A stretch of DNA of 62,048 nucleotides, the filler included, from Dugesia japonica (Eukaryota): NCBI GenBank assembly GCA_001938525.1. It is 5 parts of 5 records of this genome, joined end to end, with 100 filler letters (N's around TTAATTAATTAA, not from the genome) between each part and the next. Parts side by side here need not be neighbours in the genome. Positions count along the whole stretch, not along the records: positions 43,600 to 62,048 come from MQRL01568987.1; 4 more parts are not named here. One strand, 5' to 3'. Below are positions 5,011-61,800 of this stretch, piece after piece. Positions within the stretch are counted from its first letter, which is position 1. Every line of letters starts with the position of its first letter. The translations under genes and the position numbers were made by a program. Under the pieces are notes generated by a model. It was not told where the DNA came from. It saw only the letters and a program-made list of their open reading frames with translations, and ran no database searches.

Positions 5011-5015
5011 ATTGT

Positions 5016-6727: not shown

Positions 6728-6769
6728 GGCTCAAACGAGTCTTCCATAATTTCATCAGTTTCTCTGTTT

Positions 6770-11506: not shown

Positions 11507-11509
11507 AAT

Positions 11510-19279: not shown

Positions 19280-19393
19280 CAAGAGCTATGTTCAGTCGAC
19301 ACTGCTCACGTTATAAAAACTAATGAGGCACAGGTCTGCTTAACTTTAAAGATAAAACGAGATTTAGAGTAATTAACCTCGTATGTGCGTCGA
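19280..19393 (-). pseudogene. Degenerate 5S rRNA-derived sequence
   Basis: actaatgaggcacaggtctgcttaactttaaagataaaacgagat...gtatgtgcgt aligns without gaps to the reverse complement of the 5' two-thirds of animal 5S rRNA (ACTAA..AGG..CTGCTTA.CTT..AGAT..ACGAGAT..GTATG). Confidence 0.5.
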
Positions 19394-23790: not shown

Positions 23791-23974
23791 CAGTTTATAA
23801 AATTTTTTGATTTTTTTAAACTTTTAATCCATTGCAAATCATTTAATTTGTGAGATAACCTAAATCCTTTTCAAAGAAGTCTCAATATCACTGTAAGAAT
23901 TCTTAATGTAGAAACATTTTTTATCCCAGAATAGTTTTAATTGAATAAAATCTCAAATTTTCTATTAGCTATTT

Positions 23975-27530: not shown

Positions 27531-27614
27531 TAAACTTTCGAAATCAACACCCATAAATAATGAACAAATAAATAACGATTTATACTAAATGGTTACTAAA
27601 ATAGTAAATAGCTA

Positions 27615-28420
27615 ATCATTTCTTTCTTGTTATACAATATCCTTTTTCATGAAATGACATTTTATGTGACCTATATGCAATGACTTTTTCTTAACCTCTT
27701 TCATCTATTTGCGATAGAACCGCTCCGATGTCATTGAAACTCTCATATGTATCTTTTTGAAATCTGGAAAGCTCAATATCGGTGCTTTTGTTAATGACTC
27801 TTTCATTTCATTAAAAGATTTATCACAATTTTAAGGCCACATAAGTTTTTTATTATTACTTCCACATAGTTCTTTCAAGCTTTTAGCTTTCTTTAAAGAG
27901 TTATTGATAAACCGTTTATAATTGCATATTCCCAAAAAGTTTCTTAAGTTCTTGACACATTTAGGTTTCCGAAATTTTGTATCGCTTCAATTTTTGTTGG
28001 ATCAGTTCGAACCCCATTCTTGTCTATGACATGTCCTAAAATTTGACTTCTTTTCGCAATAAATGACTTTTTTCCAGATTAATTCTCAATCTTGATTCTT
28101 GAATTCTTTTAAAAACTTGGTCAAAAATTCTTTATTGCTGCTATAAATTTTCTGAAAATATCAATATATCATCCATGTATACCTTTGTTCCTCTCAATTT
28201 TCCTAATACTTTTGTCATTAATTCTTGAAAAGTTCCAGGCAAAAGGCATTCTTGTGAAAAAATCCTGTCAATTTTTCGTAGAAAATACTGTTTTCTTTTG
28301 TGAATCTTTATGTAACGGAACTTGATAATAGGCATTACCCAAATCAATAGTACTAAAATATTTTGCACCACTCAAATTTTCTAGTATTTCCTCTACATAG
28401 GGCATAGGAAATGCTCGCTT
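27615..28420 (-). mobile_element. Gypsy RT-RNase H fragment, same family as 14500-17290
   Basis: Reverse complement matches DNA at 15310-15385 and 15620-16130. Contains PGTFQELM..VYMDDILIFS. Confidence 0.9.
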
Positions 28421-28599
28421 TACAATTTTAGATATTAGGTTCAGTTTATAATTTAGAAATTCCCTTTATATTTTAAATGATAATCTAAGAAAAAAGAGAA
28501 CCACTAATACAAAAGAATTCTTAGTAATGATAAGCAATCATATACTAGCTGGTTAACAAATAAAGAAATCTCGACTGTTTTTTTCTGTTTGTACTATTC

Positions 28600-31687: not shown

Positions 31688-32499
31688 GTAAGTCAATGTA
31701 AATTTCAAAACAAATTTTATTTTGAATCTTATAAAAGGGAAAACTGAAAAATTAAAAATTTATATTGGTTTTAAATAATTGAATTAATCCAATTTTGATG
31801 GATCAATTGATAAATTCGTTGATAAGAATTTTAGCTAAGAATTTGAGATTGCAGTAGTGGACCAAAAACAACAGAAATATATTTTGGAGATGGTAATTTA
31901 GCAAAATGATTGGAAAATATTCAGCTACTCTAGTTAAAAAAAAATATAAAATCAAAAGCATATCGAAAAAGGTCAAAAGGAAACTCAACTAAAACAGTAT
32001 AACTAAAAGTTGATTTGCACAACAATTTTGAATAAAAATTAAAATAAAGAAAAAAAAACAATGGCAAAATTTTTAAGTGTCATTTGTTTGATTTTTGTAT
32101 TAAATTTTGAGAGGTTTTTTCAACTTCGGTTTTTATTTTAAAAAGATTTTTGAAAATTTTGACAAAATATTTTTTTAACCATTTTATTTAAATAGCCATC
32201 TTGTATTATGTATAATTGCTTGAATCTTTGTATATAGATTAAATCATAACACACTTTAAATTTTGTCTGGGTGACTTATTTATTTACGTGATATAAAAAT
32301 TTTACTTGTTTATTGGCCAAAAATTCGCGCGGAATTTCAAATTTTGGTTTTCAATTTGGTTGGTTTAAATTTGTCGTATGCTTTCAAAGTTGGTGCCATT
32401 CAACTCAGCATTTAATAATGCCTAAACATTGCCATTATAGAAATATTACTTGTTTTTTTATTTTGGTTTCATTTTACTCACCACAGTTTTTACATAAAG

Positions 32500-32800
32500 G
32501 AATTTTTTTTAAAAGTACATTTTCTACAAAGATGTTTTCTACAGCCAGCACAGATATTCGTGGTTTTATTTTCATTACATAAACCTATTTTGATAAGTAC
32601 TTCCTGGGTTCGTCAAGAAGTCTTTTTAGTTCTGATGGATTTTCATATTCTGTTAAAAGTTCTGCTAATTGAAACAGTAAAAATTTTCTGGATATATTTT
32701 CTCCAGTTGTTTCGTTGTATAAAACCCATACATTTATTGCACCTAAGTCGAGTATATTGAAAACTATTTGAAGTGGCCATTTGATCCGTCATATCTTGAA
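32500..32800 (-). mobile_element. piggyBac transposase C-terminal remnant
   Basis: WPLQIVFNILDLGAINVWVLYNETTGENISRKFLLFQLAE, then Cys-rich LCNENKTTNICAGCRKHLCRKC. Confidence 0.8.
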
Positions 32801-34582: not shown

Positions 34583-35584
34583 AAAAAGTCTAATTTATTT
34601 TTGAAATAAAATAATTCATTGATAATATACTTATTTAATTAGTAATATAATTAATTAGTTCATTAATTAATTATTTTCGATTAGAAGTTGAAAATATTTA
34701 TTCAGTTATCTCTACTTAACAAACAAAGCATGAATTAAATTAATAATTTTATAATTATTCAGAATCCGAAATAAACAAGATACTTAATTAAAAACTTTTC
34801 TCTCATAAAATAATTTCATTTTTCGCATTATTTTCATTAATAGTAAATGCAATTGTTGTTCTGTGAATAAAGAATAAAATGAAATTATATTCAGTGTATA
34901 ATGTATTTGAAAAGTAAAAATAAACTTACTGAATAATTTTTCAATTATTAATCATGAGAAATTATTTGTAAATGTTGCACGTTTTCAATAGAATTAATTC
35001 GTTNNNNNNNNNNNNNNNNNNNNNNNNNNNNNNNNNNNNNNNNNNNNNNNNNNNNNNNNNNNNNNNNNNNNNNNNNNNNNNNNNNNNNNNNNNNNNNNNN
35101 NNNNNNNNNNNNNNNNNNNNNNNNNNNNNNNNNNNNNNNNNNNNNNNNNNNNNNNNNNNNNNNNNNNNNNNNNNNNNNNNNNNNNNNNNNNNNNNNNNNN
35201 NNNNNNNNNNNNNNNNNNNNNAAAAAATTAATTAGTAAAATAAAATCTTTTAAATTTAAAAAATTATTTTTTTACAAAAAAACTCATTAATTAATTATTA
35301 AATATAATATATAGAATTTTGAGATTTCATTAAGTTAAAAGCTTCTATCAAAATGTTGTATTTTTATATTGTTTATAATTTTTTTTTCAAAAAACCAAAA
35401 AAACCAATTTTGATTGAAGCTTTTATTTTAAATGAATTCTAAAAAACGCGAAATGGTAATCCAACAATTATTCTCGTATTAATTGCAATTGTAAAATAAT
35501 TATTTTAGTTGTTAATATTTCAATTTTTTTACTTTTGACTTCTTCAGGATTTAACCAATATTAGAAAATATTTCAAAATTGTTT

Positions 35585-39832: not shown

Positions 39833-41658
39833 TAAATAAATTATCTTTTTCCAGTTTATCTTATTAATCTAAGATTCTGATAAGTCTAATAAATGTTTGG
39901 GATTGTATTAATATTTGTTCAGTTTAATTGTTTAGTGATAAAAGCACGACCTACAAACATGTCGTGCAAATTTAAGACAGACATTAATTATAAATTTGGA
40001 TTTTATCTTTTCAGAAAAAAAAATAAATAAATAATAAAAAAAAATAAAGAAAATGAAAATTTAAATTGCGAATACCTTTTAATTTAAATGGAATTTCTTT
40101 AAAATTTAATTTATTTTATTTTAATTAAAAAGCTTTATTAAATTTCTCAACAGCTGGATTTGATATTGGATTTGGAATGAATNNNNNNNNNNNNNNNNNN
40201 NNNNNNNNNNNNNNNNNNNNTTTTTTTTTCAATAATATTATTTTTGATTTTGATTGATTTTAAAATCAATAATTATTTCTTTGAGGCAGATGGAAATTTC
40301 TTAATGTCTCCGAATATATTCTATATTTAATATTATTAATGATGATTATTATAATTATAATAAGGAGAATAAAAGTCTATTCCTGACGAAGAGAAGGTCG
40401 AAAATTCGAAATACTAACAAGAACTAAAAGAAATAGAAAAACAATAATTTTGATCTTAATTTAATGAAATCTCAAATACAATCAATGGTTAAGTTACACA
40501 TAAAGTGAAAATAACATGAAACATTGTTTCCACTATCAAATTTTTACTAGTTATTATTACTTAAAATGTTTTTGAGTAAAATTTATTGTAAAAAATTTTA
40601 TTAACAAAATAAAACTTTCTATTACAAAGTATTTAACTCTTTTATAACATATCAAAAATTGTAAAAGTTTTCAAAAACAAAAACAATTAATTATCAATTA
40701 AGACTGTTATAATCAAACTCACAAAACAAGATGAAATTACGATTGATGTAATAAATATGTCCGATGAATCCAAAAAATTGGCTTTTATCCGTGTGGGCAT
40801 TTATAAATGTGGGTTATTTGTGTGAGCTTATATCATTTGGGCTTTTGTTATAGAACTTTTCTTAGTGGTAGGTTTTACACTGTTTGGAGTTATCCGTTAG
40901 TTTATATTGAAGTAATTGTTTTTACATGTTTATAATGATTGAAAGTTATATTTTTTTCTTATTTATTCAAAAGAAGTCTTGTTTTTACTAGNNNNNNNNN
41001 NNNNNNNNNNNNNNNNNNNNNNNNNNNNNNNNNNNNNNNNNNNNNNNNNNNNNNNNNNNNNNNNNNNNNNNNNNNNNNNNNNNNNNNNNNNNNNNNNNNN
41101 NNNNNNNNNNNNNNTATTAGAAACTTTAGAAATTTCTTTATCTGTAGACATAAAGATTTATTATTTTATTAAAATTGAAAATGTATATATCTGTGTGTAT
41201 ATGTGTGTTAAAGAGAATTAAAAATATTTTTTCAAAGTTTAATGGGATAGGTTTATTAGAATTTTCAATCTAGAATTATGTGAAATANTACTTGAATATA
41301 TTTATAAATACAATTTTTTATTATTTTATTAGTCATTTTAAGATAAATCTTATTAGAACATTTCATATTTATCCAGTGTAGCAAAGCCATGGCACTTGAA
41401 ACAAATTTGCTGATTCATGGAGAACGTTAAGTTAAAATACTATGATTTTCAAATTTTTTTAATGGTCAATGTTAGATGAACCTATAACATTTATCTTTGC
41501 ATTAAAAAAAGGAGCACTTTTCATTCTAAGATTTATTCACAACCAAAACAAAACACAAACCATCAATTTGTTTTTTAAACAAACTTTTAAAACTAGCTAA
41601 CTTTTTTATTTAATTCTGACCGAAATTATTTTAAAATATTTAAAAAATTATAAATTTA

Positions 41659-43899: not shown

Positions 43900-45615
43900 A
43901 CATTATTCCCATGGATTGGAATTTCGTCCTGATAAATGCGTTTATCTACACCTACCTCAAACCAACTTCACCAGCAAAATCTCTATAAATGATAAGAAAA
44001 TTAAAAAATTAGCTATAAAAGAATTNNNNNNNNNNNNNNNNNNNNNNNNNNNNNNNNNNNNNNNNNNNNNNNNNNGTCGGAGATAGAAATGACCAAAGTC
44101 CTTATGAAACGATACAACAAGTCATTGATGATTTAACAAAAATTGCTGAATCAGACCTACTAGGATGGCAGAAGCTAAAGGCATACAAAGTATTCCTACA
44201 TTCTAGACTCGCATTTGCATTCTGAACGCGCGAAATCAAAATTAGCGCCCTTAGCAATCCTCAGAATAATCCAAATGTCAGTAACAACAATATCAGTAAA
44301 GCTCGTTTCCAACTTAGACGTATATTAAATCTTCCGAAACGATCTGAAATTCTATACTTCTACAATTCAACCGAAAATGGAGGAGCTGCTTGCGTCGATC
44401 AGTTGGATGAATATCAAACTCAATGTGTTGTGCAATATTTTAAATTCCTTACCTCAAGATGCATGTATACAAACAAAATAAATATAGAATCCTTGTGTCT
44501 CGCAGCAAGTCAAAGAATAAACAAACTAAACCCATCTCTAAATGAATGCCTCGAATGGATAAATGGGAAAATACATTGAGAAACTCAAATGCAAAGAAAA
44601 CGCACTTTCAGCGAATAAGAACTGCAATACAGTTTTTCAAAAGAATTTATGATACAGATATATAGTTCAATGTACTTAATAAAGAAATAGTCCTTTAAAT
44701 GACAAATAAGACAAGGCAAACCTATGTTATTAATCGTACCTCTCGTAAAGAAATTTCAAATATCATTCACAACGTACTATTTGATTCATACGCTGAAAAT
44801 GGAAAAAAGCAAAGTAAGCAACTTGATATTCACAGCTATTCAAATGAGCCCTATTATAAATAAAATGATTTTCAAAAGTGACCTCAATGAATTTCGGTGG
44901 AATTTCATTCACAGTGCCCGAACAAACTCTCTATCAATACGTGAAAGATCCTTTTATGAAATATAAACTATCGGCGCTGTTTTACTGAAAATGAATCTTT
45001 ATCACATGTTCTTCAAAAATGCAAAATGAATCAGCCAATAGCAACTGAAAGGCATAATGCTTGCCTTGATATTATTGTCAGCAAACTTAAGACCTCAAAT
45101 GCTATTGTTGAGGTTAATAGAATAAATAAATATATTTCGGATTCTTTGGAAAAAGTGGATATTACAGTAACTAATATTGAAAAAAAACAATATATTTAAT
45201 AGATGTCATATGCCCAATAGACTCCAAAAAGAATTTTGAAGAGTGTAACAAAAGAAATTGAGAAAAATATGATCTACTAAAAAATAAAGTAAAAATAGCG
45301 AAGCCTGACTTTGAAGTAGAATTACATACTTGCATAGTTGAATAACTTGGCTCAATTCCAGCCGCAACCATCCGAATTCTGGAAAAAATTATCGAAAACA
45401 AAAATATAATTAAAAGAATATTAAAAGATTGCTCCAGATCAAATATAGTCTATTCAACAGAAGTATGGAAGTTCCGCAAAGCTGGTGTTAGAAACAACAA
45501 AATAACTTCTAATATTGAAGAATAGTATTTAAAGAATTGAAGAAACGTGTGTGGGTTCCATGTAGAACCAAAAACAAGACTATTTGTTTATTCAAACTTG
45601 TTATTTTAATAAATT
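43900..45615 (+). mobile_element. 3' part of a non-LTR retrotransposon with restriction-like endonuclease (NeSL/R5/Utopia/R2-type), decayed
   Basis: GLEFRPDKC (end of RT), FYNSTENGG, RRC..ENESLSHVLQKC..RHN (CCHC knuckle), KVDI..YLIDVICP.D (PD-D/ExK-like), LGS, and AATAAA near 45608. Confidence 0.8.
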
Positions 45616-45624
45616 TTATTATTA

Positions 45625-46106
45625 ATATATTTACTTCAAAATTATTTAATTTTTCAAAGATTTTAACATCTCAATTCTTACTGGAAATTGCATTTATTTA
45701 GTATCAAAATAATTATTCCTCTGATATTTTAAATAATTACTTATCCTTGTTGGATGATCACATCTAAATTTATGTACTAAAATACTATATATAAAACAAT
45801 AATTATCATTATTTTGAATATTAATTACACCTGCAATAAGATTGATATTCACATATTCTATTTTATATTCGAATATTTTGTCTATTGTTCATCCAAATTC
45901 ATTTATTTCTGATTCTTCAATTGCATTAATTGATCTGATATAATTCTTTCAATATTTCCAGATATATTAACCTTTCCATTATTTGAATAATAATTATATG
46001 TTGTTTCTTTTTCATCATCACCACCTTCTTTAATGTACTAAACTTTAATATTTAATCTTGTATTAATTTTTTTAGTCATATTAGTTGAATTATTCTCATT
46101 AGACAT
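45625..46106 (-). pseudogene. N-terminal region of a Maverick pPolB
   Basis: EESEINEFG*TIDKI, VINIQNNDNYCF, HPTRISNY and FPVRI.VKIFEKLNN, in order and separated by frameshifts. Confidence 0.75.
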
Positions 46107-47542
46107 TTTTTAAAAGTAATAAAATAAGAAATTTATGTTTCATTAGAAATACTTCGTGGTATGAATTTAGTTAATAATTCCTCTGCAGTAATTAAATAAT
46201 TTAACATAGTGATATTATAAATATAAATTTTTTCAAGTAGAATTAATGAAATACATTCTACTTGTTTCAGAGGAATATTACTCTAAAATGTAATTTCATC
46301 ACTTGATATAATTATTGAAAACTTTTTTTTCAGTAAAATTATATATTCAAAATTTTTATAAATACAATTAATCATTATAAATAGATGGATAGAAGCGCAT
46401 GGGGCCACCACCCCCAGGGAAATTTTTTTTTATTTTGGCCGATTTTATTTAGGGAGAGAGGGGATGTTTTGTTTTAATGAATTGAATTTTTTTGCGGATT
46501 TTCTATAGTATAAGAAATAAAAATTGAATTTCTTGTTTCAATGAATTGGAGAGGGGTGTACTGCCCCAGTAATAGTTATCGAGTTGTATTTCTTGTTTTA
46601 ATTAATGGAATATTTTGTTTGAATTCATGAAATTTTTGTTTTTATTATTGGAACTTTTTGTTTTAATTAATAAAATTTTTTGTTTTATTTAATCATGGAA
46701 TTTTGAATAATTTTTTTTAATTAATAGCGAAATTTTGTATTTAGCGTGTAATGGGGCTATCTTGATATTTTGCATGGTATGCGGCAGTCTTGATATTTTG
46801 CATATAATTCATATTATACATGAATAAATATTCAAATTAAAACGTTACTTTACAAAATGATAAAAAACAGAACTTTTTTCAAAAAAACATATTAGTTAGG
46901 AAATTTTCTATAAAAAGACACATTTTAAACAATACTATTGGCAATTTTCTATAAAAAATCTCATTAGTGATATAAAGACGTATTTGAGCCAGTTCGACAA
47001 CCAAACCTTTAGACGTTTAAGACTACCTTTAAAAATGTGGCCTGTAAATTTTGCAATTTCCGATTTCAGATTTTAAATTTTGTTGGGGTTAAACAACCGC
47101 TAAACAAGTTAAGGTTGAAAAATAAATTAACAAAAAAAATGGCAGGACCTTTATAGTCAACAATAATGAAAAATAAAGCATGAAAGCAGCAGTAGAAGGA
47201 AACGAAATAAAATCAAAGGTGAATATGAAGAACCGAGTAAAATAAAAGTAACTTACGTCTGGAAATTAAGAAAATTATTAAATTAATAATAAATAACAAG
47301 GGAAAGTGGTATGGAAAATAATTAATTAACAAAAGAAAATTAATTCATTTTAAAATAAAAAAGAAGCGAAATTAGTTAAAAATCTGTTTTATCCAGATAA
47401 TTTCGTTCAAGGAAGTCGGAAAGAACCCGGATAAGAAAAAATGAAGAGAGAACATCAAGATGCAATTAAAATTACGAAGAAGAAAAACATACCACCCTCC
47501 TGAAGGGTACTGCAAGGTTCCAAGATCCAGCTAATAGAAAAC

Positions 47543-48050
47543 CTACAAATAAAAATATAACAAAGACACAAATGTCATGTGTCCTGATAAAAATAGCTGC
47601 CAATCATGGCACCAAAATTCGAAAAAAATTTGTAGAAAATGGCATGAGAACCAATAACAGCAGAAAAACGTTGATCTAAAAATAATCAACAAATCCTGAC
47701 AAAGTTGGGGTGTTAAGAAAATACTATAAAAGGAACCCCCGAATTTTAGAAAAGACACAACAAAAAAATCCATTTTAAATCTCAAACCCTTAATATGACT
47801 TGTTTGATAAAAGACATCACAAACAGAACTTATATTCCATCAGGATCAATTATCAACTTTAATAAAGTTAAACTGGTAAGGTTGAAAAACCCTGTTAAAT
47901 TGTCTAATCGAATTTGTTAATAGAATTAGAAAAAACTAGTCCTGCTGCCCGAAGAAATTAATCATCAATAAGAATCAGCAGATTGTACCAGGAATTTGCC
48001 CTTACAATTGAAACTACCGTTGCAGAATCTATCGGATTAAATTTTGAGTA
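47543..48050 (-). pseudogene. Hydrophobic ORF remnant antisense to and upstream of the unknown cassette (copy B)
   Basis: Homologous to 11510-12022. Synonymous differences (cta/tta, ttt/ttc) in FL(Q/E)IF favour minus-strand coding. Confidence 0.55.
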
Positions 48051-49442
48051 AGGATATGTTTATTCTCTATGTGTGTTATTTTATTAAAAGTTGTGTATAA
48101 TGATTTTAATAAATTCCATTCGTAAAAATTGGTAGTTCAAATTAATATGCATATTATTTTTTATAAAAGATATTGAACATAATTATCATAAAACAAGCTC
48201 CCCTAAAATTTTAGAAAATTAATTTATTAATTTAAATTAATTTACCCACTCTAATAAACGTTATTACAAATCACGAATGAATTATCCCTGTGTTATTGTT
48301 AAGAAACGTCGACATTAACGTAATTTCAATGAGAAATGTTCCTATTAATAGATAAAATATTATCAACGCTAATTGAACCAAAATATGTTATTTTAAATTA
48401 ACTTTGTCTGTGTGCCTTGCTACTAATGATTTTTGGTAAACAGATATTCACCCTTTTCACTAGCCAAGCATACAGCCACTTTAAATCCTACAGCGAAAAT
48501 GTCAACCAATCAAATTGCCAGTCTGATTTAAATTAAACATCATATGTAATCAATTCATATCTATCGATATTACATCAACTCACTCTGTTCACTAACTCGC
48601 TAATACGCATTGCACACACGGCATTCAGTTCTCACCTAACACAACAACAAGAGTGAATTGAGTTGAATTTTCATAACCTTGAGTCGTAACCAAAGACGAC
48701 GTAAATCATTATAATTTAAATCACCTCAATTTTCACTACACTGAGACTAAACTTTAATTACCATTTCTGCGAAAAAACTCAAGATAATCGCATTTAAATT
48801 AAGCCTGTGTTCACAAAATTAAAATAAATTCTAGTTGAACTGCAAAAAAATGGATAATTTCTATCCTAAACAAGTTACATTACAGCAAATGTCTGCTATA
48901 CCAAATTTTTCGTTTGCTGATATTTTTATCTATAACCAAGCAAAGCATGAAACGCAATTTTTTTGCTTTTGTTATAAAATAAATTCAATGAGTATAATAA
49001 ACTATGGGAAAATTATGATTATTATAAAATTGTTTAGTATGATTGTTTCACAAAGTATGACCAAATAACGAGTAAACCTACACCATGTCATTTCCTGTGA
49101 TTTTCGCAATTATTAGTCATAAAAATAAGAATGGATTAGTTTAATACGATATTAGGAGGATGAGAGTTAGGTTTCCAACAAAAGCACGACAATATCAGTA
49201 ATTTACAAAGATATTGTTAATGCAATTATCAGTAAAAATGACCGGTCTGACTTACAGGTATCAGGTAGATTAGAGGATTCAATTTTATTTGAATTTTTAC
49301 AATGAGTGCGGTATGTAGACCAACTCCCAGAGAGATCTAACTTTAACGGGAAAAACATTATAGAAATTACACCTCCCGATTCTTCCAATTGTTATGGTCG
49401 AATAAAAATTAAATAATTTCATTTGTTAGATAATTCAGAATC

Positions 49443-49625
49443 ATGGCCGATCAGTTAACAAGAATGTTGGCATTAGTTCAGTTTGAAAGAGGGAAATCCC
49501 GAAATAGGCAGCTGTTAATTCATATAGTTTCACACGGTGTAACCGAACATCCCGACGAAACCGATCTCCAGTGTTTCGCCGAGATGTTCCCGCTCCAGAA
49601 CCACGTTGATCTCGATGAGGAGTGA
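49443..49625 (+). CDS. Unknown cassette ORF1, copy B (60 aa, intact)
   Basis: Aligns without gaps to copies A and C. Conserved E.P.ET.L.C..EMF motif and acidic tail. Acceptor ttcag upstream. Confidence 0.8.
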   Translation: MADQLTRMLALVQFERGKSRNRQLLIHIVSHGVTEHPDETDLQCFAEMFPLQNHVDLDEE

Positions 49626-49802
49626 TCCTCCTAGACTAAAAACCGCTGCTGGCTAGATTTTTGATTGAATAAAATTTAATTAACCTCACTTCTTATCTGT
49701 TGTTTTAAAAAATTGGCTCGTAGGGATTAACGATTATTAAAATTATTCTTTTATTTTAATTTTTATGTGTTTAAAAGTACTCTTTATTGTAGAACTGACA
49801 AA

Positions 49803-50213
49803 ATAGACTACGTTTGGGAACTGCTATGGGACCGTCGCACGGGGCGCACCATATTTAAAAGATATAGAAACCCGCATGATCGCAATGCAGGTATTTTAAT
49901 GGATTATTCTAATCTGTCCAGCGAAGATGCAGATAACGAAAGAGAATGGGCCGCCGCAGAGCACCAAGCTTTTTATCAATGGTTTGGTCCCGATCGCACT
50001 CAAGAAGTGTTACATCGGGCTACCCCCCTCGCTCCAATAGCTAACCAAACAATTAGTCAATGGCAGGGTGGTCCGTCGTTATTGCCTGTGTCGATCGCCC
50101 ACCTTCCCAGAAATACTAGATTCTCTCTAGACCTTGGGAATACTTTGTGGGATCTACGCAATCGAGCTAGTGGCGGTGCTCTAGAAAATACAGAACCCTC
50201 CTCAGGATCATAA
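49803..50213 (+). CDS. Unknown cassette ORF2, copy B (start codon appears decayed to ATA)
   Basis: IDYVWE aligns to MESVWE of copy C. Acceptor ttgtag at 49787-49792. Confidence 0.8.
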   Translation: MDYVWELLWDRRTGRTIFKRYRNPHDRNAGILMDYSNLSSEDADNEREWAAAEHQAFYQWFGPDRTQEVLHRATPLAPIANQTISQWQGGPSLLPVSIAHLPRNTRFSLDLGNTLWDLRNRASGGALENTEPSSGS

Positions 50214-50439
50214 AAGTTACCAATATGTCAGTATCGTGATTTTCAAATCTAGAATACATGTTTGTGTGTCTATTCGATATTTTCCTTTGTTGTGGGTTCT
50301 TCAGTTGTTACAAAAATTTTTCTCTTTTATAGGTATAAACCAATTATTAATAATCTGATAAACCATGTTGTAAAATAAAATGTTTGCCTTAGGATACATA
50401 AAATTCTAACTCTTGCTCTCATTAATGTGTATCTTTTAG

Positions 50440-50799
50440 TGCATTCTTCATTGAATCGCGTATCGGCTCCTACAAAAAAGATGCGAGATGATAGTGAGAA
50501 CCGCGAGATGACATGAGACCTGTATTGACTCGCTAAGCGTAAGTGGGAGGTGAATACATCTAACGCTAATAGTAAGGTAAGCCGATACCGAAAAAAATGT
50601 GTAGCTTTCCGAAAAGAAAGTTGAGGCTTCCCATGCATAAGAAAGGGTGTGGAATGGGCAAGTGGAGTCACTGGTTGACATGATCCGGTCTTACCAAGAC
50701 CGCGAAAATAAACTGGTGAGTGATGTAATGAAATTGAAGGTTTCCATGCCCCTTGAACCTTTGATGGTCGAGAAAGGCACTCAGACCCCTAAGAGTTAA
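50440..50799 (+). pseudogene. Unknown cassette ORF3, copy B (ends in KGTQT motif)
   Basis: Begins ttttag|TG CAT. Reads HSSLNR..APTK..SKVSRYRKKCV..DRENKLV..PLEPLMVEKGTQT with stops and one frameshift. Homologous to 58987-59345. Confidence 0.8.
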
Positions 50800-50936
50800 T
50801 GCATATACAATTTTTGTTAATAAACCTTTTGTGTGAACCTTCTTATGGCTTTTCTTTTCATTGTTTTACATTATGTGAGTAATCAGTTTAGTCTTTATGA
50901 AAATTTTATTTGAGAATTAACTTTAAATTATTTTAG

Positions 50937-51319
50937 TGCCTCGTACCCGTTTCCCGAACAATCTTCGTCGGTGCCATCACATTATGCGCTGACTCCTTAT
51001 CGAAAGGCATTTGAAGCGTAAGATAGACCGAACACTTCTTAAACAATTATCACAGAAGGACAGATTGATTAAAAAATTAGATATAATCGTAAAAAAGCAG
51101 AACGACCTTGTTATGCAAACGAAGGCCTTAGAAGCCGAAAATAAACAGTTATTGCAGAGGAAGATCGAGTTCTTAAAGCAATTTATTGACGATATATCCC
51201 GACAAATAGGCAACCCAACTGTAACACAATGGGATGACGATAATGACATCGAAGCCTTCAACTTTTTGGTGACAGAACCAAACCAGTGGTTTGATCCAGG
51301 GGCGCTGGATTTGCTTTAA
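50937..51319 (+). pseudogene. Unknown cassette ORF4, copy B (basic region, coiled coil, acidic tail)
   Basis: Begins ttttag|TG CCT. Reads PRTRFPNNLRRCHHIMR*LLIERHLKRK..LIKKLD..TKALEAENKQLLQRKIEFLK..SRQIGNP. Homologous to 58545-58866. Confidence 0.8.
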
Positions 51320-51711
51320 ATATTTTCGTAAAATAAAATATCAAAAATCAAAATTGTAATCTTTTTCTTTTGATGATAACAATAAGGGAAAAATCATAGA
51401 ACCCAAAAATAAAGGTTTATCGACGTGTACCTTCCATTAAGAGTAAGGTCAACCACCATAAACTGAAAACCTACCACAGGGACGGTAAGGTAAATTCTTG
51501 AAAGGGTTCCCTTGAGGGCTATTTTTTCCCCAGCCACCTTTTCGTGTCACTCGACTCAGGTGGGACCCCAACAATTGTAAGCCAGGTCGTTTTCGAAGCC
51601 AGCTCGTTTTACAACCTTTAAAAATGTGGCCCGTAAATTTTGTGAGGAGTGAGGAAAAAATCTTCTCCTTCATCGTTGGACATGTGGCACGTTAATTTTT
51701 TACTTAATAAA

Positions 51712-52053
51712 ATGGCTTTAGAATTTGAAGATTAACATGTGAAAATATTGAGGAAAATTTAAAATTCGCAAGTAATTTTGATTCTCAATTATTTTTAAAA
51801 TCACAAAAGCTTTGTACACTAGCAAAATTTAAAAGAAATAAAATCAAGAAATCCTAATAAAAAAGATTTTTTAATTGCGGCCGAAATTGGAATAACAACT
51901 ATGTCTTTAAATAAAATTTTGCGAGAATTAAATGTAAAACCAGAAAGAAAAAAATATCATAGATTAAAATATTATTATAATGCAAAAACTCGGGAATATG
52001 AAAAAGATCAATATGGTAATTATTTTTTTAATGTAAAAACAAAAATTCATTAA
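51712..52053 (+). pseudogene. Small helix-turn-helix-like ORF, frameshifted
   Basis: EIKSRNPNKKDFLIAAEIGITTMSLNKILRELNV fits an HTH pattern. Confidence 0.5.
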
Positions 52054-52604
52054 AATAAAAGCTTTGATCAAAATGTTGGATTTTTTTTATTGAAATTTGA
52101 TAACAATTCGATATTTCGACCTTGTCTTCGTCAGGAATTGACTTTTTAATTTATNNNNNNNNNNNNNNNNNNNNNNNNNNNNNNNNNNNNNNNNNNNNNN
52201 NNNNGAAATAATTTATTTTTATTAAATTTTAATTGGTTAATTTTAATTCTTATTTTATATTTAATTATTTAATTTTTATTATTGCAAATTATATTTATTT
52301 TAGGATTGTTTTCTTTGATTAGTATTTCTTCATGTTTTTTCTGTGTAGTGTAGAAATGTAGCTTGTTCCAAGTGTTTTCCATGAAATGTGATGTTGTTCT
52401 GGTGAAATTTTATGTTTGTGTTGAAAGTGTTTGAATACTTCACTTTCTTTTTGTTTCAAATGTTCCTTAAAAACAAAAAGTTTGAATTAATTCCTCCAGC
52501 TAAAATAAAAATAACTTTAACTGAAAAAAGAAATGAAATAGCAAATCAAGAATAGCCAATTGAAAAGCCTAAAAATATTTCCAAGAAAAAAAATACTCGT
52601 GTAG

Positions 52605-53204
52605 GTGGCGCAGTTGAAGAGGAAATTGAAAAATCTTTCGAGTCGCATAAATAGTGCTATCAAGTTGCTTAAATTTATTAATTATAAAAATGATGATTTA
52701 ATGGAAATAATTAAACAAGATCCAACATTTAAAAGTAAATTAATTGAAGATTATTCTACCGTTGTAAAATCATCATTAAAAGAAAAAGAAGTTTTGATAA
52801 AAACAATATTTCCACAATATAAATTACTAGGTGAATCATTAGCTTTAGCAGGAGAAACTATTTATGATTTATCAAAAGAGAATGATGTTTTAAAAACCGA
52901 GTTGGAAAAAGCAGAGGAATTTGATCAAGAAAAGATTGAGAAATTAATTACAAAGAAAAAAACTCAAGAAGATGAAAATAAAAATAAAATAATATTAAAT
53001 GATTTAAGAAGAACAAACATGAAAACCAAACAATTGCTTTAGAAAATGGCGCGAGAAATAGAAACAAAAGAGTTGAATAATTTTATAAACAATACAACTA
53101 AATTAAATAAAAAAGTCGAACACCAGAAAAGTATAATTTTATTTTTATCAGTGATAATTTTCATGGGATTACTTTTTATGTTAATAAAATGGATACTAAA
53201 TTAA
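52605..53204 (+). pseudogene. Coiled-coil protein with C-terminal transmembrane helix (one internal TAG)
   Basis: Reading through the TAG at 53040 the frame continues to SIILFLSVIIFMGLLFMLIKWILN*, overlapping the capsid start. Confidence 0.55.
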
Positions 53205-54513
53205 ATTTAGATAATAATATTGACTTTTCACATGTTTCAATAAAAAATGATGTTTTAAAAATTTTACCTTCATCCGGTTCAATTAATAATCTAATGGCGT
53301 CGGGAGATATCGTTTTTCAATCTTTACAATCAACAAACCCATTAGACATTTGCAATGCGATGCTGTATTTTAAAATTGAAATCACAATTCCAGATAAAGA
53401 AAAGAAAAAGATAAATAACTTTAGAAAATAATTTCTTTCCAAGTATACTTAAATCCATGAGATTAACCTTGAGTTCAACAGATGTAGAAACAATAAATGA
53501 TCCGGGAGTAATATCAACAATGTTAAATTTAATTACAACTACAGAAACTTGAAAAAAAGAATATGGACAAATGTCAGGATGGATGCCAGATACAAATAAA
53601 GAAGATACAGAAGTAAAATATTAGAATTCTAATACTGGATATTATAAGAGAAGGAAATTATACCTCAACAAGAAATTTGAAGGTTATTTTTTATTGAGAA
53701 ATTTATTTGGTTTTATGCAAAATTATAATAGACTTTTATACAACACAATGATTCAATTTACTTGTAATACACAAATGAATGATAATTTATTATTTTATGG
53801 AGAAAAAGATGCAACAGCGGCTTTAAAATCAATAACCATTGAATTACGCATACCAGAATTTAGATAATTACCAAAATCAGAATTATTTTTATTAGAAAGA
53901 ATTGCTACAAATAAACCAATAAAAGTTTCATACTTAAATCGAATAACTGCAAAAACAAATTTAGATTCTGGAGGATATTGTTCAATAAAAATAAGTAGCT
54001 TAGCATACAAACCAAGATATATTTTTATTGGAATAAAAGATAATGAAATTTCATTTCAAAAGAATAATAATTTATTTATACAAAAATTATCCAAGAAAGT
54101 TAAACAAGGAAATCCAGAAGCGGATGTAATAAAAGATTATTACATAAAAAGCATACAGACACAATTAAACAATACTTTTTATCCGATTAATGAATGTAAG
54201 TTTAATATGGAAAATAATGAAATGATTTTTCCTTATTTAAATTATACAAAATGTTGTCACGATTTTTTTTAACAGAATCACAGGTATCACTTTTAGATTT
54301 TGGAAACCTAAACCCAATATTTAGTTTTGATGTAAGTGCGCAAGATGATAAATTAAATATTAGCAATGTTGATGTAAGACTTTACACATTACAAAAGATT
54401 AAGATTTTAGAGGAACTGTTTATTGGTGTATCCTTGAAGAAAAACATGTAGAAATGAAATTACCAAATAGTAAAATTGTTATGGTGGAAAATGTGAGGGG
54501 ACTTAACCTTTAA
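53189..54513 (+). pseudogene. Major capsid protein (double jelly-roll, hexon-like), frameshifted
   Basis: ILPSSGSINNL..GDIVF, LENNFFPSIL.SMRL..VETINDPGVISTMLNLIT, GWMPDT, LFGFMQNY, KPRYIFIG and PIFSFDVSAQ are motifs of Maverick/adintovirus MCP. Confidence 0.82.
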
Positions 54514-54543
54514 TGTTAAAATTTTAAAATTTATAAATAAAAA

Positions 54544-55790
54544 ATGGCAAGTCTAATATTTAAATGTGAAAACTGTAATAAAATTTTATCAAGGAACAAT
54601 AAATCGAGACATTATAAAAATTGTAAGCAAACCGGAGGAGATCTCCAATCTTCTAATATTACATCAGCGTTATTAAAACCTTTTACTTTGGAAAAATATC
54701 CTGGTGAGAGACATTTGTTTAAACATAATTACACCGGACCGGGAACTAGATTAGATTTAAGATTAGATGAAAATAATAATTCTTCACCCGGAGAAGAACC
54801 AGTTAATAAAGTTGATGAAGTCGCATTAAAACATGACATTGCTTATCATTCAACCGATATTAGAGATTGTTATCTTGCAGATGTAAATTTAATTCACGAT
54901 TTAAATAATATTGAAAATCCAACTATTGGAGAAAAATTACAAAGAGCTTTAGTTAAATTAGTTATGAAGGGAAAGATAATGTTAGGACAAGGCGTTTTAG
55001 CACATGAGCTTCACTACGAATAGAGAAAACCAAAACATTTTCTAAAAGTAACAGTACATGATAAAGATGAAACATGGTCGGCAGATTTAATTTTTCATGG
55101 AATAGAAAGAAGAGGTAAAATGGTAATTTTAACAGTAATCGATCTCTATACTCGTTTTGCATTTTTAGAAATTTCAGGAGATAAAACAGGACCACAAGTT
55201 AGAAATACTTTTGAAAAAATTATTGGAAAAATAATAGAATGCCGAATAACTTGTGGGTGGATAAAGGAAAAGAATTTTATAATAAATCATTTCAAAATTT
55301 TTGCATTAAAAATAAAATTAATTTATACTCTACTGAAAATGAAGGTAAGGCAGTTGTTATAGAAAGATTTAACCGAACATTTAAAAATAAGTTGTTTAAA
55401 CATTTTACTACTGTTGGGAATCAAGATATTACGGATTCTTTATTACAAGAAATTGTAAACACTTACAACAACACAGTTCATTCATCAATAAAAACCACAC
55501 CACAACTTGCGAAAATAAATCCAGAAAATATTAAAGATGAAATTGAAAAACATAATACTGAATATGATAATCTAAATGAAAAGTGTAAATTTAAAATCGG
55601 TGATCGAGTAAGAATGTTTAAGGTAAATAAAACATTAGCAAAAAGTTATACAGTTAAATTGTCAAAGAAAATTTATTTAGTAACAAGAATTTACAATACA
55701 AGACAATGAACTTTTCAAATTAGTAATTTAAATGGTGAAAAAATTCCTGGGAGATTTAATACTAATGAATTACAGAAAACAGCATTTTAA
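54544..55790 (+). pseudogene. Zinc finger / PLA2 / rve integrase fusion (TAG at 55021, frameshift near 55235)
   Basis: CENCNK..SRHYKNC, HNYTGPGT, DEVALKHDIAY, then the same frame gives HELHYE*RKPK..WSADL..VIDLYTRFAF, followed by WVDKGKEFYN..IERFNRT. Confidence 0.9.
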
Positions 55791-55908
55791 CCAGCGCTCA
55801 TAAATTACTTTCATTAAAAATCTTAAAATGTAAAGTCCTAAAATGTTAAAGTGTAAAAATATAACACTTAATAGGTTGCTGCGCAACCTTAAATTAATTT
55901 TATAGAAA

Positions 55909-56648
55909 ATGAATGAATTAATATGGAGAAAAAATACAACACTATTTAATAATAAAGTTTTACCAAATAATTTTAGATTATTAATGATTGGATCTTCAGG
56001 TTGTGTGGAAAATGTTATATTAATGAAAATGTTACTAACACCAGATTTTTTAGATTACAATGTTTTAATTTTTTTATTCAACAACAATCAATCAATTTGA
56101 AATACAATTGGTTTATATAGGTTTTGAAAATGGATTAACTAAACAAGAAATAATTTCAATGTTTGAAAATCAAAATATGGTTCCTGATTCTTACAGTACA
56201 CCACATCAGGTTTTTCAATTTTATTTAGATAAAAAATTAGTTAAAAAACCAAGATCAATAAATGTTACACTAAGTAATATTTCTTGTGATAAACTTTTGA
56301 GGGATAAAAAAAATTTAATTATTTTTGATGATGTTGTTAATGATAAAAATCAAGAGATACAGAAAAGTTATTTTACTCACGGTCGTCATTCAAATTGTAA
56401 TGTAATTTACATTTCCCAAACTTATTGCCATTTAGATAAAAATTCTATAAAGGAATTATTCAAATTGTTATATTTTTTTCAAACTAAATAAAACAGATAG
56501 AGATAATGTTTATCATGAATTATTTTCAAATATTTTTAGTAATAAGATGGAATATGATTATGAAACTAATTTACACTGGAAAACTAAATATAACTATTTT
56601 TATTTAAATAAAGAAACTGAAGAAATGTTGGATGATTTATTTACATAA
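55909..56648 (+). pseudogene. A32/FtsK-like packaging ATPase
   Basis: RLLMIGSSGC (damaged Walker A), LIIFDDVV (Walker B) and HGRHSNCNVIYISQ. Confidence 0.88.
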
Positions 56649-56689
56649 AAATTTTTAAATAGTATCTACGATAGTTTTATAATTATCCA

Positions 56690-57385
56690 TAATTTTACAA
56701 AATGAAATTTTACAAAATACCACTAAATCTTATTATATTTTTATTTATATAACTTTTTTTTATAATTTATTCCAATTGATTGTAAATACATTTCCATGTT
56801 TATTTTATCTTTTAATTTATTTTTCATTGCTTTAAATATTGAACCTAAATATGCAGAACTAATTAATGTCATTTTTTCATGATCACCATGCCACCGTTGA
56901 GTGCTTTCAGTTAAAACCTCTAAACTTTGAAAAGTAAAATTATAACGAGCCTTTTTAAAGGCTTGAATATTAAATTCAGTTTGTGGTTGTGAATTATATT
57001 CCAATTTAAATTTTTCTAAATCAAATTTATTTTTGATAACATTTTTATGTTTTTCTTCAAACTCTGTAACAATATCTCTTTCAGGAATATTTACATCAAC
57101 TATATCACTCTCGTCAATAGCATAAAACACCTCTTCATCTTCAGAATCCTCTTCCTCTGCTTTTATTATTTCCTCTACATTTAGTGGGGTATATCTCGAC
57201 TTGAATAATTTTTTATAACTTTTATCTATATAATCTTCAGTAGTTAATTCATCAAGAAATTTTTCATCACTAATTAATTTTTTATCATCTTTTTCTGCAA
57301 AACGTAGTTTACAATCATCACATAATATTTTTCTAAATTAATAACGTCGTTTAATATTTTTTTTACTTGACTAAAAACACTCCAT
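56690..57385 (-). pseudogene. Maverick ORF of unknown function, homologue of 5762-6727
   Basis: Same position and orientation as in copy 1. Shares CxxC and YL.S.GINYK. Confidence 0.65.
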
Positions 57386-57437
57386 TTTTACTAGTATTTT
57401 TTTAATCATAATATTATTTTTTTGACCCACCCCGAGG

Positions 57438-57495
57438 GACCCGACTCATAAAAGATTCGACTCATAAAGGACCCGACTCATAGGGACCCGGCTCG
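57438..57495. repeat. About 16-bp tandem repeat (gacccgactcataaa) in the divergent intergenic region
   Basis: Three full units and one partial. Same position as the 25-bp repeat of copy 1. Confidence 0.85.
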
Positions 57496-57560
57496 TTTTA
57501 TGATCCTCTTTAAACTTTTGTTCCCCAAAATTTTTTTGCCTCAAATTTTTCCTTTAAAAA

Positions 57561-58010
57561 ATGGAAAAGCCTACAGAGGATAAATTGAAAAAAATAATAA
57601 ATTCAAACAAGTGTAAATCAGTAAAAATTTATGACAAAAATTCTTGGATTAGTAAAAAAGTAAAAGAGGAAACAAAGAAAGCCCACGAAGGTGGTTTTGC
57701 ATTTTTAGCAGCAATCCCCGCAGTTATTGCAGGCCTGGCATCTGCACCGGCGTAGCCAGTGGCATTGCCAGTACCGTAATAAATTCACGGGCCGCTCAAG
57801 TTCAGGGTCTTGAAAAATGAAAAAAGAAAAAGAAATTCAAATTCTAAACTTGGGCTCTGGACTTTATTTATATCCTTATCAAGGTTCTGCAATTCATAAA
57901 TATTGAAAAATTACTAGGAACCTAGGTTTAAAAAATATTACACGAGGTTTTAAAAATGGGGTAGAAATAAAAGTAAAACGTAATGGATTATATCTAAGGC
58001 CTTATAAATA
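57561..58010 (+). pseudogene. Putative virion core protein, homologue of 5016-5556
   Basis: MEKPTEDKLKK..HEGGFAFLAAIP, LGSGLYLYPYQGS and GLYLRPY. Confidence 0.6.
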
Positions 58011-58021
58011 TCCTTTGGAAA

Positions 58022-58545
58022 ATGACGACGAGAACGGAGAAGAGGATCGAGGAACTGAAACAATTGATTAAAGCTCGAGGAAATTATAATATTTTTTACT
58101 GGGAAAATTGTTGAATCGAGAAAATTAAAAGCGAAGTTAACAACTCTACAGTGGCCAACTATTAGAGCTATTGAAAAAATTACAATTAAATCCAACTCAA
58201 TAGATGTAAGAGATTTAACAAATTTTTTTTCAAGTGAAAAAAAAATTCCATTTACTCCTGAATACTCTATTAATAATGTAAATGCTAGTGGAATGTTAAC
58301 TGAAACAATTATTCCTCGATATTCTGGATTAAATGTTATTGGTTTAGCTGGTGCGAAAATGTTTATGAAAATAACTTTGAAGGAAAATAAAATTCATTTA
58401 TTTGAAGAATATGGGGAAATAAATTATTATTAAAATCAGAAATTATTCCATTCACTGATTATTTAGAATAATTTTGGGGAATCAAGATGGCTTGGAAACA
58501 CGTGAAGATATTAGGACTTATTTATATAAATTAATTTCTCCTCTC
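58022..58545 (+). pseudogene. Conserved Maverick ORF, homologue of 4023-5010, truncated
   Basis: FTGKIVESRKL..LQWPTIRAIEKI and ILGNQDGLETREDI. Homology stops abruptly near 58545. Confidence 0.7.
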
Positions 58546-58866
58546 ACAACCAACAGCCGTCATCATCGTTCGAATGGATCCAAGCTGGGTTCCCAATCTG
58601 TCGGGAAAGATCAGCGATATACAGTTTTAAGAAATCTATTTTTCTCAACAGTTACTTCTTATTCTCTACCTCTAGGGCTTTGGTTTATATTGCTAAGTTG
58701 TTTTGCTTACAAACTACCAAATCCAATTTTTTTATGAGTTGATTCCTCTGGGCAAGGTGCTTAAGAAGAGCTTGTTCTGTTTTACGCTTTAAGTGACGCT
58801 CTAATAATAGACGGCGCAGGATACGGTGGAACCTCCTCAAACTAGTCGGAAACACGATTCGAGGCA
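58545..58866 (-). pseudogene. Unknown cassette ORF4, copy C
   Basis: Begins ctttag|TG CCT. Reads PRIVFPTSLRRFHRILRRLLLERHLKRK..LIKKLD..TKALEVENKK*LLRKIDFLK..SRQIGNP. Confidence 0.8.
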
Positions 58867-58986
58867 CTAAAGAAAAAGTACAATTAAATTAATGAATACC
58901 CAATCAACGACTCAGGAAAAACAAGTAACAGAAGAACTTCATACAAATAAATAATTTATTAACTCAAACAATAATGAAATAACAAG

Positions 58987-59345
58987 TTAGGAGCGGCTCG
59001 TCTGAGTACCTTTGTCGATCATTAGCGGCTCGAGTGGGATTTTCTCCCGGAGAATGAAGATATCGTTAACTAGTTTATTTTCTCGGTCATGGCTGGACCA
59101 ATTAATCTTTGAAAAAGATTCCACTTGTTTTTTCCAAGTGCGCTCCTGTAAATGGGAGGCCTCGGCTTCCTTTTTAAAGTGAACACACTTTTTCTTATAA
59201 CGGAGGACTTTACTATGGGCCGCGGCTACCTCAGCTTCTCATCGGCGTTTTGCTTACCGGTATAAATCCCAGGTGAGTTCGAGGTCCTCAATGGTATCAC
59301 GGATTTGTTTAGTAGGAGCTGGGGGGCGATTTAAGGAGGAATGCA
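58987..59345 (-). pseudogene. Unknown cassette ORF3, copy C
   Basis: Begins ttttcag|TG CAT. Reads HSSLNRPPAPTK..SKVLRYKKKCV..DRENKLV..PLEPLMIDKGTQTSRS*. Confidence 0.8.
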
Positions 59346-59572
59346 CTGAAAAGAGAAAACTTATATATATTTTATCGAAAATAGATAAAGTTATGTTCCA
59401 AAACGACACAGTAGTCATAAATTCGATTACTAAGTTCTATATAACCTAAATCTACTTATACACCTATGAAAAAATCTGAGAACAAAACACACAAAAATCT
59501 ATTATATTTTATAATATATTTCTACATATATTTTAGCCGAGCCAATTTTATTATAGGTCACCCTACAATTCA

Positions 59573-59926
59573 CTAAGGAGGAATTGATACATCCGGTACG
59601 GGTGCAGTATTTTCGGAGTCTTCACTGCCCGTGGGCTCTCTTATCCCCCAGAGTAGGTTAGTAATAAAAGCCTGTACCGCGGGAGCTGGAGTTAGAGTGA
59701 GAGACTGGTAACGAAAAGAAGTCACCAGGGTACGATCAGGGCCTGACTAAGCCTGGTAACATTGTCGCTCACCAAAATCTCTGATGCGCTCGACGATTGA
59801 CTCGACGGGAGGCAAATTTGACCTGTCAACTAAGATCCCGGCGTCGCGGTTGTGTCGATTATGGTGCCGCCGGAAAATGACTCGACGACTTCTTCAGTCT
59901 ATGACCCTTTCCCATACGGATTCCAT
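59573..59926 (-). pseudogene. Unknown cassette ORF2, copy C
   Basis: Begins ttttag|aaATG. Reads MESVWERVID*RSRRVIFRRHHNRHNRDAGILVDRSNL..GPDRT. Confidence 0.75.
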
Positions 59927-60060: not shown

Positions 60061-60243
60061 TCATTCCTCATCCAGGTCTACTTTCGTGTTCAAAAGAAAC
60101 ATCTCAGTGAAACAGCAAAGATCGGTCTCATCCGGATGTTCGATCTCTCCTTTTGTCAGCAAATGAGCCAACAACTGCTTGGATCGGCTAATTTGTCACC
60201 GCCTCTTTATCCATTGCAGGACACGATATAATTCTGTCGGTAT
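60061..60243 (-). pseudogene. Unknown cassette ORF1, copy C (ATA start, TGA at codon 16)
   Basis: IPTELYRVLQWIKRR*QISRSKQLLAHLLTKGEIEHPDETDLCCFTEMFLLNTKVDLDEE*. Confidence 0.8.
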
Positions 60244-60699: not shown

Positions 60700-61200
60700 G
60701 TTTTGGTCAGTGAATTGGTCGAAGTTTTCTTCGGGAATGGAAAATTTGGGTAATTTTCGGACAATTTGGTCAATTTTTGGTTAATTCAGGTAAATTTGGC
60801 TCATTATTGGACGATGCAGTCAATTATTTACTCGGTTTGGGTAATGTTAGTCACTTTTTTTACTCAGTATGGATAAACTTGGTTAATTATTTGCTCACAA
60901 AAGTAATTTTTAGGTGAATTCGGTCCAATATTTCTTCGGGTTTAGTCAATTTTGAATTTTTGGAAAATTGGTAAATTATTTAATAGGGTATGGTTTAGTT
61001 GGTTAATTTGTGAACCATTCGGTCAATTATTTACTCATAGAGGTCAGATTTTGGTTGACAGTTCTCAGAGTTTGGTTGATAGTGGACAGAGATTGAATGA
61101 TTATGATCAATTATTTATTCATAAGGGTAATTTTTCGATTATTTGGGGTAATAATTTTATTGGTAAGGGTAATTTGGTCAATTATTTCATTTAAATTAGT
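60700..61200. repeat. Degenerate minisatellite of ggtcaatt/ggtaattt words
   Basis: Many (t)tgg(t/g)(c/t)aatt-like words at roughly 10-11 bp spacing. Confidence 0.65.
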
Positions 61201-61659
61201 TAATCTCATATGATAAAAAATACAAATCATTCCCGGTACATTACAAATTAGTTAACCTTAATTAATAAAATGTTAATAAATTTTATCTTTTAGAAAAAAC
61301 TTTAATTTCGATTAAAAATGTCATCAAAGAAATTGATTATAGTTAATTAGAGGCAATTATTGCTTTTTTTAATATATTCAACCAAATTTCAATAATTTTA
61401 GTTAAATAATTTACTCAATGCGATCAAATCGGATTAATTTTCAGTCAATTGCAGTTTTTTGTTAAGGAATTTCCTAGTAATAATTCATTTGCAAAGGAAT
61501 TTCATTGGAAATGGCCAAATTTAAATTTAAACATTAGTCAGTTCCTATAGATTTTTAAGATTTATAGTTTATAGGATGATAAATAAATTATAAATTAATT
61601 AATAAATGATAAATTATTCTCATACATTGAATTTCAATAATAGTTTATTTTCTTTCCAT

Positions 61660-61800
61660 ATCATTACATTACCTCATCCGGTTAGTACAGTCGAGCAATT
61701 ATTCCGACTGTTCACATCCAGTCTCAAACTGTTAACGCTCAATAACGTTAGCTTCCAATTGAGTCCGTTCATATATGAACTTGTCGGCCAACTAGCGTAG
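61660..61800 (+). pseudogene. Unknown GC-rich coding fragment, homologous to 18335-18495
   Basis: Shared EQLFR.FTSSLK..TL..VS.QLS. Lies antisense to and upstream of cassette C. Confidence 0.6.

Follow-up and report, generated by a model that had tools for sequence, protein, structure and literature searches.

A cassette of four orphan proteins, plausibly an accessory unit of a Maverick, in decayed copies in the genome of the planarian Dugesia japonica

Background

Mavericks are relatives of adenoviruses, in which the major late, E3 and E4 units combine a common leader with alternative acceptors and alternative poly(A) sites. Accessory and cargo regions of Mavericks have already been described. 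According to the available part of one preprint, nematode Mavericks carry a high-GC, poorly conserved, intron-bearing region of 2-5 kb between the TIR and the integrase, with wasp/wosp proteases and krma kinases as cargo (bioRxiv 10.1101/2022.07.12.499685). In adintoviruses, accessory genes are usually found upstream of PolB, and the motifs LxCxE, CR1 and CxxC define the Oncoids, as far as the accessible text describes them (PMC8502044). That same text contains no mention of splicing. Our literature search on Mavericks or Polintons and splicing turned up no paper describing a spliced Maverick unit, and a nematode Polinton preprint held nothing relevant in its accessible part. Knockdown of piwi derepresses Polintons in planarians (PMC8532177). 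Here we describe a cassette of four short coding blocks from Dugesia japonica and compare it with these systems.

Results

The analysed stretch of 62,048 nt (the window) consists of five small scaffolds joined by N44-12 nt-N44 spacers and comes from an AT-rich animal genome (27% GC). It contains an NDUFS1 gene and an 18S fragment, along with Gypsy pieces and two stretches of Maverick. The NDUFS1 host exons (29500-32800, +) are separated by short introns, one of which uses an AAG acceptor. The 18S rRNA fragment (23405-23831, -) is degraded, and a weak 5S-like match lies at 19294-19394 (-). One Gypsy family is present in two copies (14380-17600 and 27587-28421, 87-92% identity), and the protease region of the former occurs twice, at 14555 and 17447. 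An AT-rich open frame without a Pfam match (18025-18250, -) sits between a Gypsy fragment and a GC-rich island, which we call segment S. Positions 44080-45560 (+) hold the decayed 3' part of an apparent site-specific non-LTR retrotransposon, again without a Pfam match; we take it to be of this class and to encode a restriction-like endonuclease. A MITE-like short dispersed repeat with inverted ends was found at 52044-52150, 35317-35445 and 40371-40468.

The cassette comprises four blocks, ORF1 to ORF4. With copy B (49443-51319, +) as the tBLASTn query, all four blocks were recovered in the same order in copy C (60243-58550, -; E 2e-8 to 1e-20) and the first two in copy A (13440-14178, +; E 9e-8 and 1e-30), which confirms the fixed order and the three copies reported in the initial annotation. 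A profile search in all six frames found no fourth copy in the window. The seven block comparisons are of equal length and align without gaps in every case, and mismatches peak at third codon positions in all seven. Values of pS range from 0.79 to 0.91, above the 0.75 beyond which a dS correction is impossible, and pN from 0.21 to 0.39; pN/pS is 0.24-0.45, with bootstrap upper bounds all at or below 0.65. DNA identity among the copies is 50-64% in the ORFs and at shuffle level in the spacers. The third-position mismatches, the values of pN against pS and the shuffle-level spacers thus mark the copies as long-separated lineages with past purifying selection, as had been proposed from proteins that are alike and DNA that is much diverged. 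The earlier description as four short GC-rich ORFs holds for composition (GC 0.41-0.51 vs 0.20-0.34 in spacers) but not for intact ORFs, given the stops, a frameshift and absent ATGs. Whole frames are limited to B ORF1 and A ORF2, and copy C has seven stops in total plus a truncated ORF4. These data support the conclusion that purifying selection once acted on the cassette and that all three copies later decayed.

In copy B (all +), ORF1 (49443-49625) is intact and 60 aa long, with AATAAA 42 nt past its stop. A possible short fifth unit lies 5' of it (49351-49416); this is weak and was chosen post hoc, its B-C score being reached in 17/5000 shuffles. ORF2 (49803-50213) is an open frame of a long type, with no ATG at the aligned start and an acceptor-like AG about 10 nt before it. 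ORF3 (50439-50799; three stops and one frameshift) and ORF4 (50936-51319; one stop) have the form of phase-1 exons starting at AG/TGC. In copy C (all -), ORF1 (60061-60243; one stop) has neither an ATG nor an acceptor AG at the aligned start. C ORF2 (59573-59926; two stops) is of a short type, with an ATG 2 nt past an acceptor-like AG; ORF3 (58987-59346; two stops) is a single frame ending in DKGTQT; and ORF4 (58550-58867; two stops), cut at a junction with a Maverick gene, is left without its C-terminal tail and poly(A) signal. Copy A (both blocks +) has ORF1 (13440-13625; one stop), with an ATG 3 nt past an acceptor-like AG and AATAAA 39 nt past the stop, and ORF2 (13834-14178), of the long type with a shorter N-terminus (ATG at 13852). 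A Gypsy pol fragment follows from about 14380.

Copies A and B have in common a segment about 1.9 kb 5' of ORF1 (66% over 215 nt; score 131 vs a shuffle maximum of 86), so the cassette unit extends beyond the four ORFs. In B this segment (47554-47765, +) is A-rich and has no clear reading frame; in A (11507-11715, +) it is cut by the scaffold start. The upstream region of copy C differs from that of A and B. A 32-bp direct repeat (94%; 47022-47053 and 51611-51642, both +), whose similarity runs over about 70 bp, encloses a 4.6-kb segment containing copy B. Its second copy lies in a GC-rich non-coding stretch (51400-51700), and the repeat may represent either a Maverick promoter present twice or the border of a unit that was inserted.

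Segment S lies upstream of C (61548-61775, -) and on scaffold 2 (18378-18605, +), with 70% identity over 236 nt. It contains degenerate repeats and shows weak signs of coding (mismatches 11/9/17), no cassette follows it on scaffold 2, and its membership of the cassette element is uncertain. Degenerate strand-biased repeats also occur upstream of B (46466-46720) and of C (60700-61200), the latter holding several donor-like GA/GTAAA sites.

The acceptor and poly(A) architecture of the blocks was overlooked in the initial annotation. An acceptor-like pyrimidine tract and AG precede 9 of 10 cassette starts vs none of 15 Maverick starts (background 13%) under a rule that was relaxed after the data had been seen; the strict rule gives 6 of 9 starts against a background of 5%. 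AATAAA occurs within 50 nt past the stop in eight of nine cases (background 20%, P 2e-5), and the same-strand spacers all measure 119-226 nt (7/7). Four of the six ORF1 and ORF2 copies have an ATG shortly past the AG. Neither ORF3 nor ORF4 has an ATG in B or C; their homology begins exactly at AG/TGC (4/4), one base into a codon, and a phase-0 join would meet a stop after 4, 4, 25 and 9 codons. The TG conserved at these starts, despite saturated synonymous sites, suggests that the splice junction completes a Met codon, or else that the leader is coding and very short. Among the copies, no conserved leader exon or donor was found. Taken as they stand, the blocks look like alternative last exons.

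The proteins are orphans, as had been thought, with no family, structure or fold match. Pfam and PHROG returned nothing at the cut-off for the cassette proteins, the phage genomes had no match to any of them, and a PDB sequence search gave designed armadillo repeats and generic coiled coils only. Searches of the large protein collection covered ORF2 and ORF4. An HMMER scan of 1.84 billion representatives yielded three matches, two of which (P0002 and P0003) were discarded as repeat artefacts. The third, P0001 (94 aa, E 3e-18), is the one real outside homolog recovered, and it matches ORF2. It comes from one ENA record of 512 nt, close to what a processed unit would measure (a match in length only). 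It starts at the Met of C ORF2, and its C-terminal half is short as in that block, so ORF2 exists in a long (A, B) and a short (C, P0001) type. A search seeded with P0001 returned only P0001 itself (1/599), and word searches found nothing among 8 candidates for B ORF2 or among 57 for the ORF4 alignment, leaving ORF4 with no homolog in that search. ORF2 had no match in the Atlas, and the predicted folds of ORF2 (pLDDT 35) and ORF1 (65, no viral match) were uninformative.

ORF1 is modelled as a helix-loop-helix. It carries LxCxxE, not LxCxE, in all three copies, an acidic tail in B and C, and a CK2 site downstream of the Cys motif in one of the three. A likeness to HPV E7 and SV40 T motifs failed the motif test, with LxCxE, CR1 and CxxC each found in none of the 12 sequences tested. 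Weak winged-helix matches (E 0.05-0.2) received no support from the model, and condensation-domain look-alikes (Atlas, 0.90) were rejected for having few features in common with ORF1. ORF4 combines a basic N-terminal part with a heptad helix, and its B copy also has an acidic-aromatic tail; a bZIP identity was rejected, as ORF4 has neither the N-x7-R/K-x9-L basic region nor a Pfam bZIP match. Both available copies of ORF3 (B, C), a helical protein, terminate in KGTQT, and a [KR]-x-T-Q-T motif of the LC8 type arose by chance in 183/100000 shuffles. K-x-T-Q-T is an LC8 motif according to the accessible text of PMC3078936, and ORF3 is thus a predicted LC8 ligand through this terminus. Protein size, the absence of enzyme signatures and the LC8 motif, and only these, suggest a host-binding role for the cassette proteins.

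Copy B is contiguous, without any gap, with Maverick-like ORFs on both sides. To its left lies a decayed, putative pPolB 5' piece pointing away from it (45625-46106, -; seen in translation), and to its right a decayed HTH-like ORF with Maverick-like codon usage (51712-52053, +; GC3 0.05). The contiguity noted earlier stands, but the identities given to these neighbours found no match in Pfam or PHROG, and we presume both to be Maverick from their motifs and low GC3. The end of an unrelated repeat and a 50-N gap (together 52044-52204) then separate B from the capsid block; the MITE-like copy at 52044-52150 adjoins the gap 3' of the HTH-like ORF.

Past the gap, Pfam bears out the expected capsid-integrase block in a Maverick core (52605-56650, +) with an unknown ORF, a double jelly-roll capsid (E 3e-8), a PLA2-domain ORF (6e-9), an integrase (4.5e-4, below cut-off) and a packaging ATPase (6e-7). 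Beyond it, a Maverick gene (57950-58548, +), whose homolog continues in scaffold 1, is truncated against copy C, just as first described. C ORF4 and this gene are cut at one junction near 58550, as would be expected if a deletion had brought the core together with an end module pointing inward. Copy B lies upstream of the capsid-integrase block across the gap. It faces away from pPolB whereas C is on the pPolB side of the core, which speaks against Maverick ownership. Since B and C flank one Maverick piece, they are not independent.

Scaffold 1 (1-8560) holds the second Maverick piece, with long open frames and 75-84% identity to the scaffold-5 core. There the 3' end of pPolB runs towards genes in the opposite orientation, namely protease-like and minor-capsid-like genes and those for ATPase, integrase and PLA2. 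Provided that this gene order is a common one, pPolB to the left of B comes from another element end, and the two flanks of B therefore do not belong to one element. The part of this Maverick that is present contains no cassette, and both element ends are missing. Another of its ORFs (5648-5953, +) has a weak match to Erv1/Alr sulfhydryl oxidase (Pfam E 5e-4, below cut-off), an enzyme known from large DNA viruses.

Several results count against a Maverick origin. GC3 is 0.445 (429/963) in the cassette vs 0.13 (166/1262) in the adjacent core, without overlap between 11 cassette and 19 Maverick ORFs, and the cassette copies are 50-64% identical vs 75-84% for the two cores. Pfam detected no Maverick gene on the 12.9-kb scaffold of copy A. 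No inverted repeat above shuffles was found in 46107-52154, so there is no TIR between pPolB and the gap, and there is none among the longest inverted repeats of scaffold 5; these scaffolds are short and decayed. A likeness between 51400-51720 and Maverick-internal 57340-57570 was set aside, its score of 36 vs 33 for shuffles being marginal for one of 182 comparisons.

Discussion

The proposal that the cassette is a Maverick accessory region is partly supported, by the contiguity of B, the fusion of C and the cargo-like GC content and splice signals, and weakened by the unlinked copy A, the missing TIR and the gap. Maverick ownership of the cassette is plausible. On balance we lean towards an accessory or cargo transcription unit, cis-spliced and now dead, located in the variable terminal region of an alpha-adintovirus-like Maverick family that carries PLA2.

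It is possible, if unlikely, that the carrier was instead an independent, unrecognised DNA element or virus of at least 4 kb, including the upstream part common to A and B, next to which Maverick pieces came to lie in repeat graveyards. The codon composition unlike that of the Maverick core, a divergence deeper than that of the cores and the lack of a Maverick link for copy A would all fit such an element, and Maverick DNA fills about a quarter of the window anyway; the 32-bp direct repeats that flank the 4.6-kb segment with B point the same way. However, the flanks hold no transposase, Rep, polymerase or recombinase, no termini were found, two of the three copies touch Maverick genes, and Maverick cargo, too, is typically high-GC. 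A Gypsy-type LTR retrotransposon with the cassette as accessory cargo is very improbable, even though copy A sits directly upstream of a Gypsy pol on the same strand, segment S occurs both upstream of C and downstream of the A-side Gypsy, and accessory ORFs are known in planarian Burro elements from the accessible text of PMC6431247. The four sense-strand poly(A) signals would probably cut the genomic RNA of such an element. The A-side Gypsy has relatives of 87-92% identity without the cassette, the A junction shows no LTR and no gag, the repeats include no LTR pair, and no retroelement genes lie near B or C. A polypurine-tract or LTR idea for C was unsupported, and a Terminon/Penelope reading was dropped because the Rfam scan found no ribozyme.

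Two further explanations concern the nature of the blocks themselves. We give the least credence to an origin from a host gene family confined to this lineage, of which the blocks would be exons in decayed copies. The splice signals are real, and cargo of nematode Mavericks is thought to be host-derived in the available part of the preprint (bioRxiv 10.1101/2022.07.12.499685), but each block ends in a stop and a poly(A) signal, three dead and deeply diverged copies lie within 62 kb, the cassette GC3 exceeds the value of 0.32 for the window's one host gene, and a single homolog was found among the 1.84 billion representatives. The four genes might also form an operon resolved by spliced-leader trans-splicing, which would leave the question of the carrier unchanged. 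A poly(A) signal followed by an acceptor, the typical operon pattern, is present here, as is an ATG just past the AG in the ORF1 and ORF2 copies mentioned above. The spacers, moreover, fall below the 300-bp flatworm operon threshold in the accessible text of PMC12582326. The flatworm spliced leaders reported there end in ATG (PMC12582326); scored against these leaders, the AUG is out of frame with ORF3 and ORF4 in all four cases. This favours a shared cis-spliced leader, and we regard an operon as quite improbable.

Under the cis-spliced Maverick unit that we prefer, one upstream promoter would make a short leader exon, and cis-splicing would join this leader to one or another of the four alternative last exons, with poly(A)-site use setting the choice as in the adenovirus late unit. 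ORF1 and ORF2 would start at their own ATG, and the start of ORF3 and ORF4 would be supplied by the splice junction. The products would be small, non-enzymatic, host-binding proteins. ORF3 may form a helical dimer clamped by the dynein light chain LC8 via KGTQT, serving transport or dimer stabilisation. ORF4 may be a coiled-coil regulator with an acidic tail, and ORF1 a short helical peptide whose Cys motif is near but not identical to the Rb-binding motif. Rabies P and Ebola VP35 are LC8-binding, coiled-coil viral proteins, and ORF3 would resemble them as a helical protein that terminates in K-x-T-Q-T, a likeness of motif only and not of homology.

This arrangement is reminiscent of the adenovirus major late, E3 and E4 units in its presumed common leader, alternative acceptors and alternative poly(A) sites. 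It differs from them in lacking sequence similarity, in comprising just four short ORFs, all non-structural, and in having no identified leader; in addition, the structural genes here lack such acceptors (0/15). The analogy with E1/E4 made in the initial annotation survives loosely, in position and in the probable spliced unit, but not in motifs, since those of the E1A type are absent.

A high GC content, little conservation at the nucleotide level and splice signals are traits of Maverick cargo that the cassette displays. Like the cargo in the accessible part of the nematode study, it consists of a few kb of high-GC, poorly conserved and here presumably spliced coding DNA beside a low-GC, intronless core (bioRxiv 10.1101/2022.07.12.499685). 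Unlike that cargo, as far as it is described there, the cassette has, in place of one intron-bearing enzyme gene, a tandem array of four orphan units that each carry their own poly(A) signal, and it shows no host homolog, no TIR and no sign of recent transfer. Similarly, adintovirus Oncoid and Adintoc genes are, in the accessible text, short family-less ORFs upstream of PolB in a PLA2-bearing element, and ORF1 has a Leu-x-Cys; unlike Oncoids, however, none of the 12 cassette sequences contains the three defining motifs (PMC8502044).

Accessory and cargo regions being familiar features of Mavericks, our comparison suggests that the orphan proteins and the last-exon architecture are new. Both are absent from the literature searched; Repbase and supplements may hold an earlier record. 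A bolder reading, which we consider tentative and rather doubtful, is that of a Maverick lineage with an adenovirus-style, leader-spliced and alternatively polyadenylated unit of four orphan genes for host interaction, in two ancient types (long ORF2 in A and B, short ORF2 in C and P0001) that face each other from the two ends of the genome as E1 and E4 do, or else of a new class of mobile DNA element.

Conclusions

Maverick gene expression and the handling of the host cell by these elements are largely unknown. The cassette adds four orphan protein families, one of them with a concrete predicted host partner (LC8), and the presence of three deeply diverged copies in 62 kb suggests an abundant, old and overlooked repeat component. 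If the unit is leader-spliced, it would represent a regulatory trait common to Mavericks and adenoviruses, for which exact junctions and poly(A) sites are predicted.
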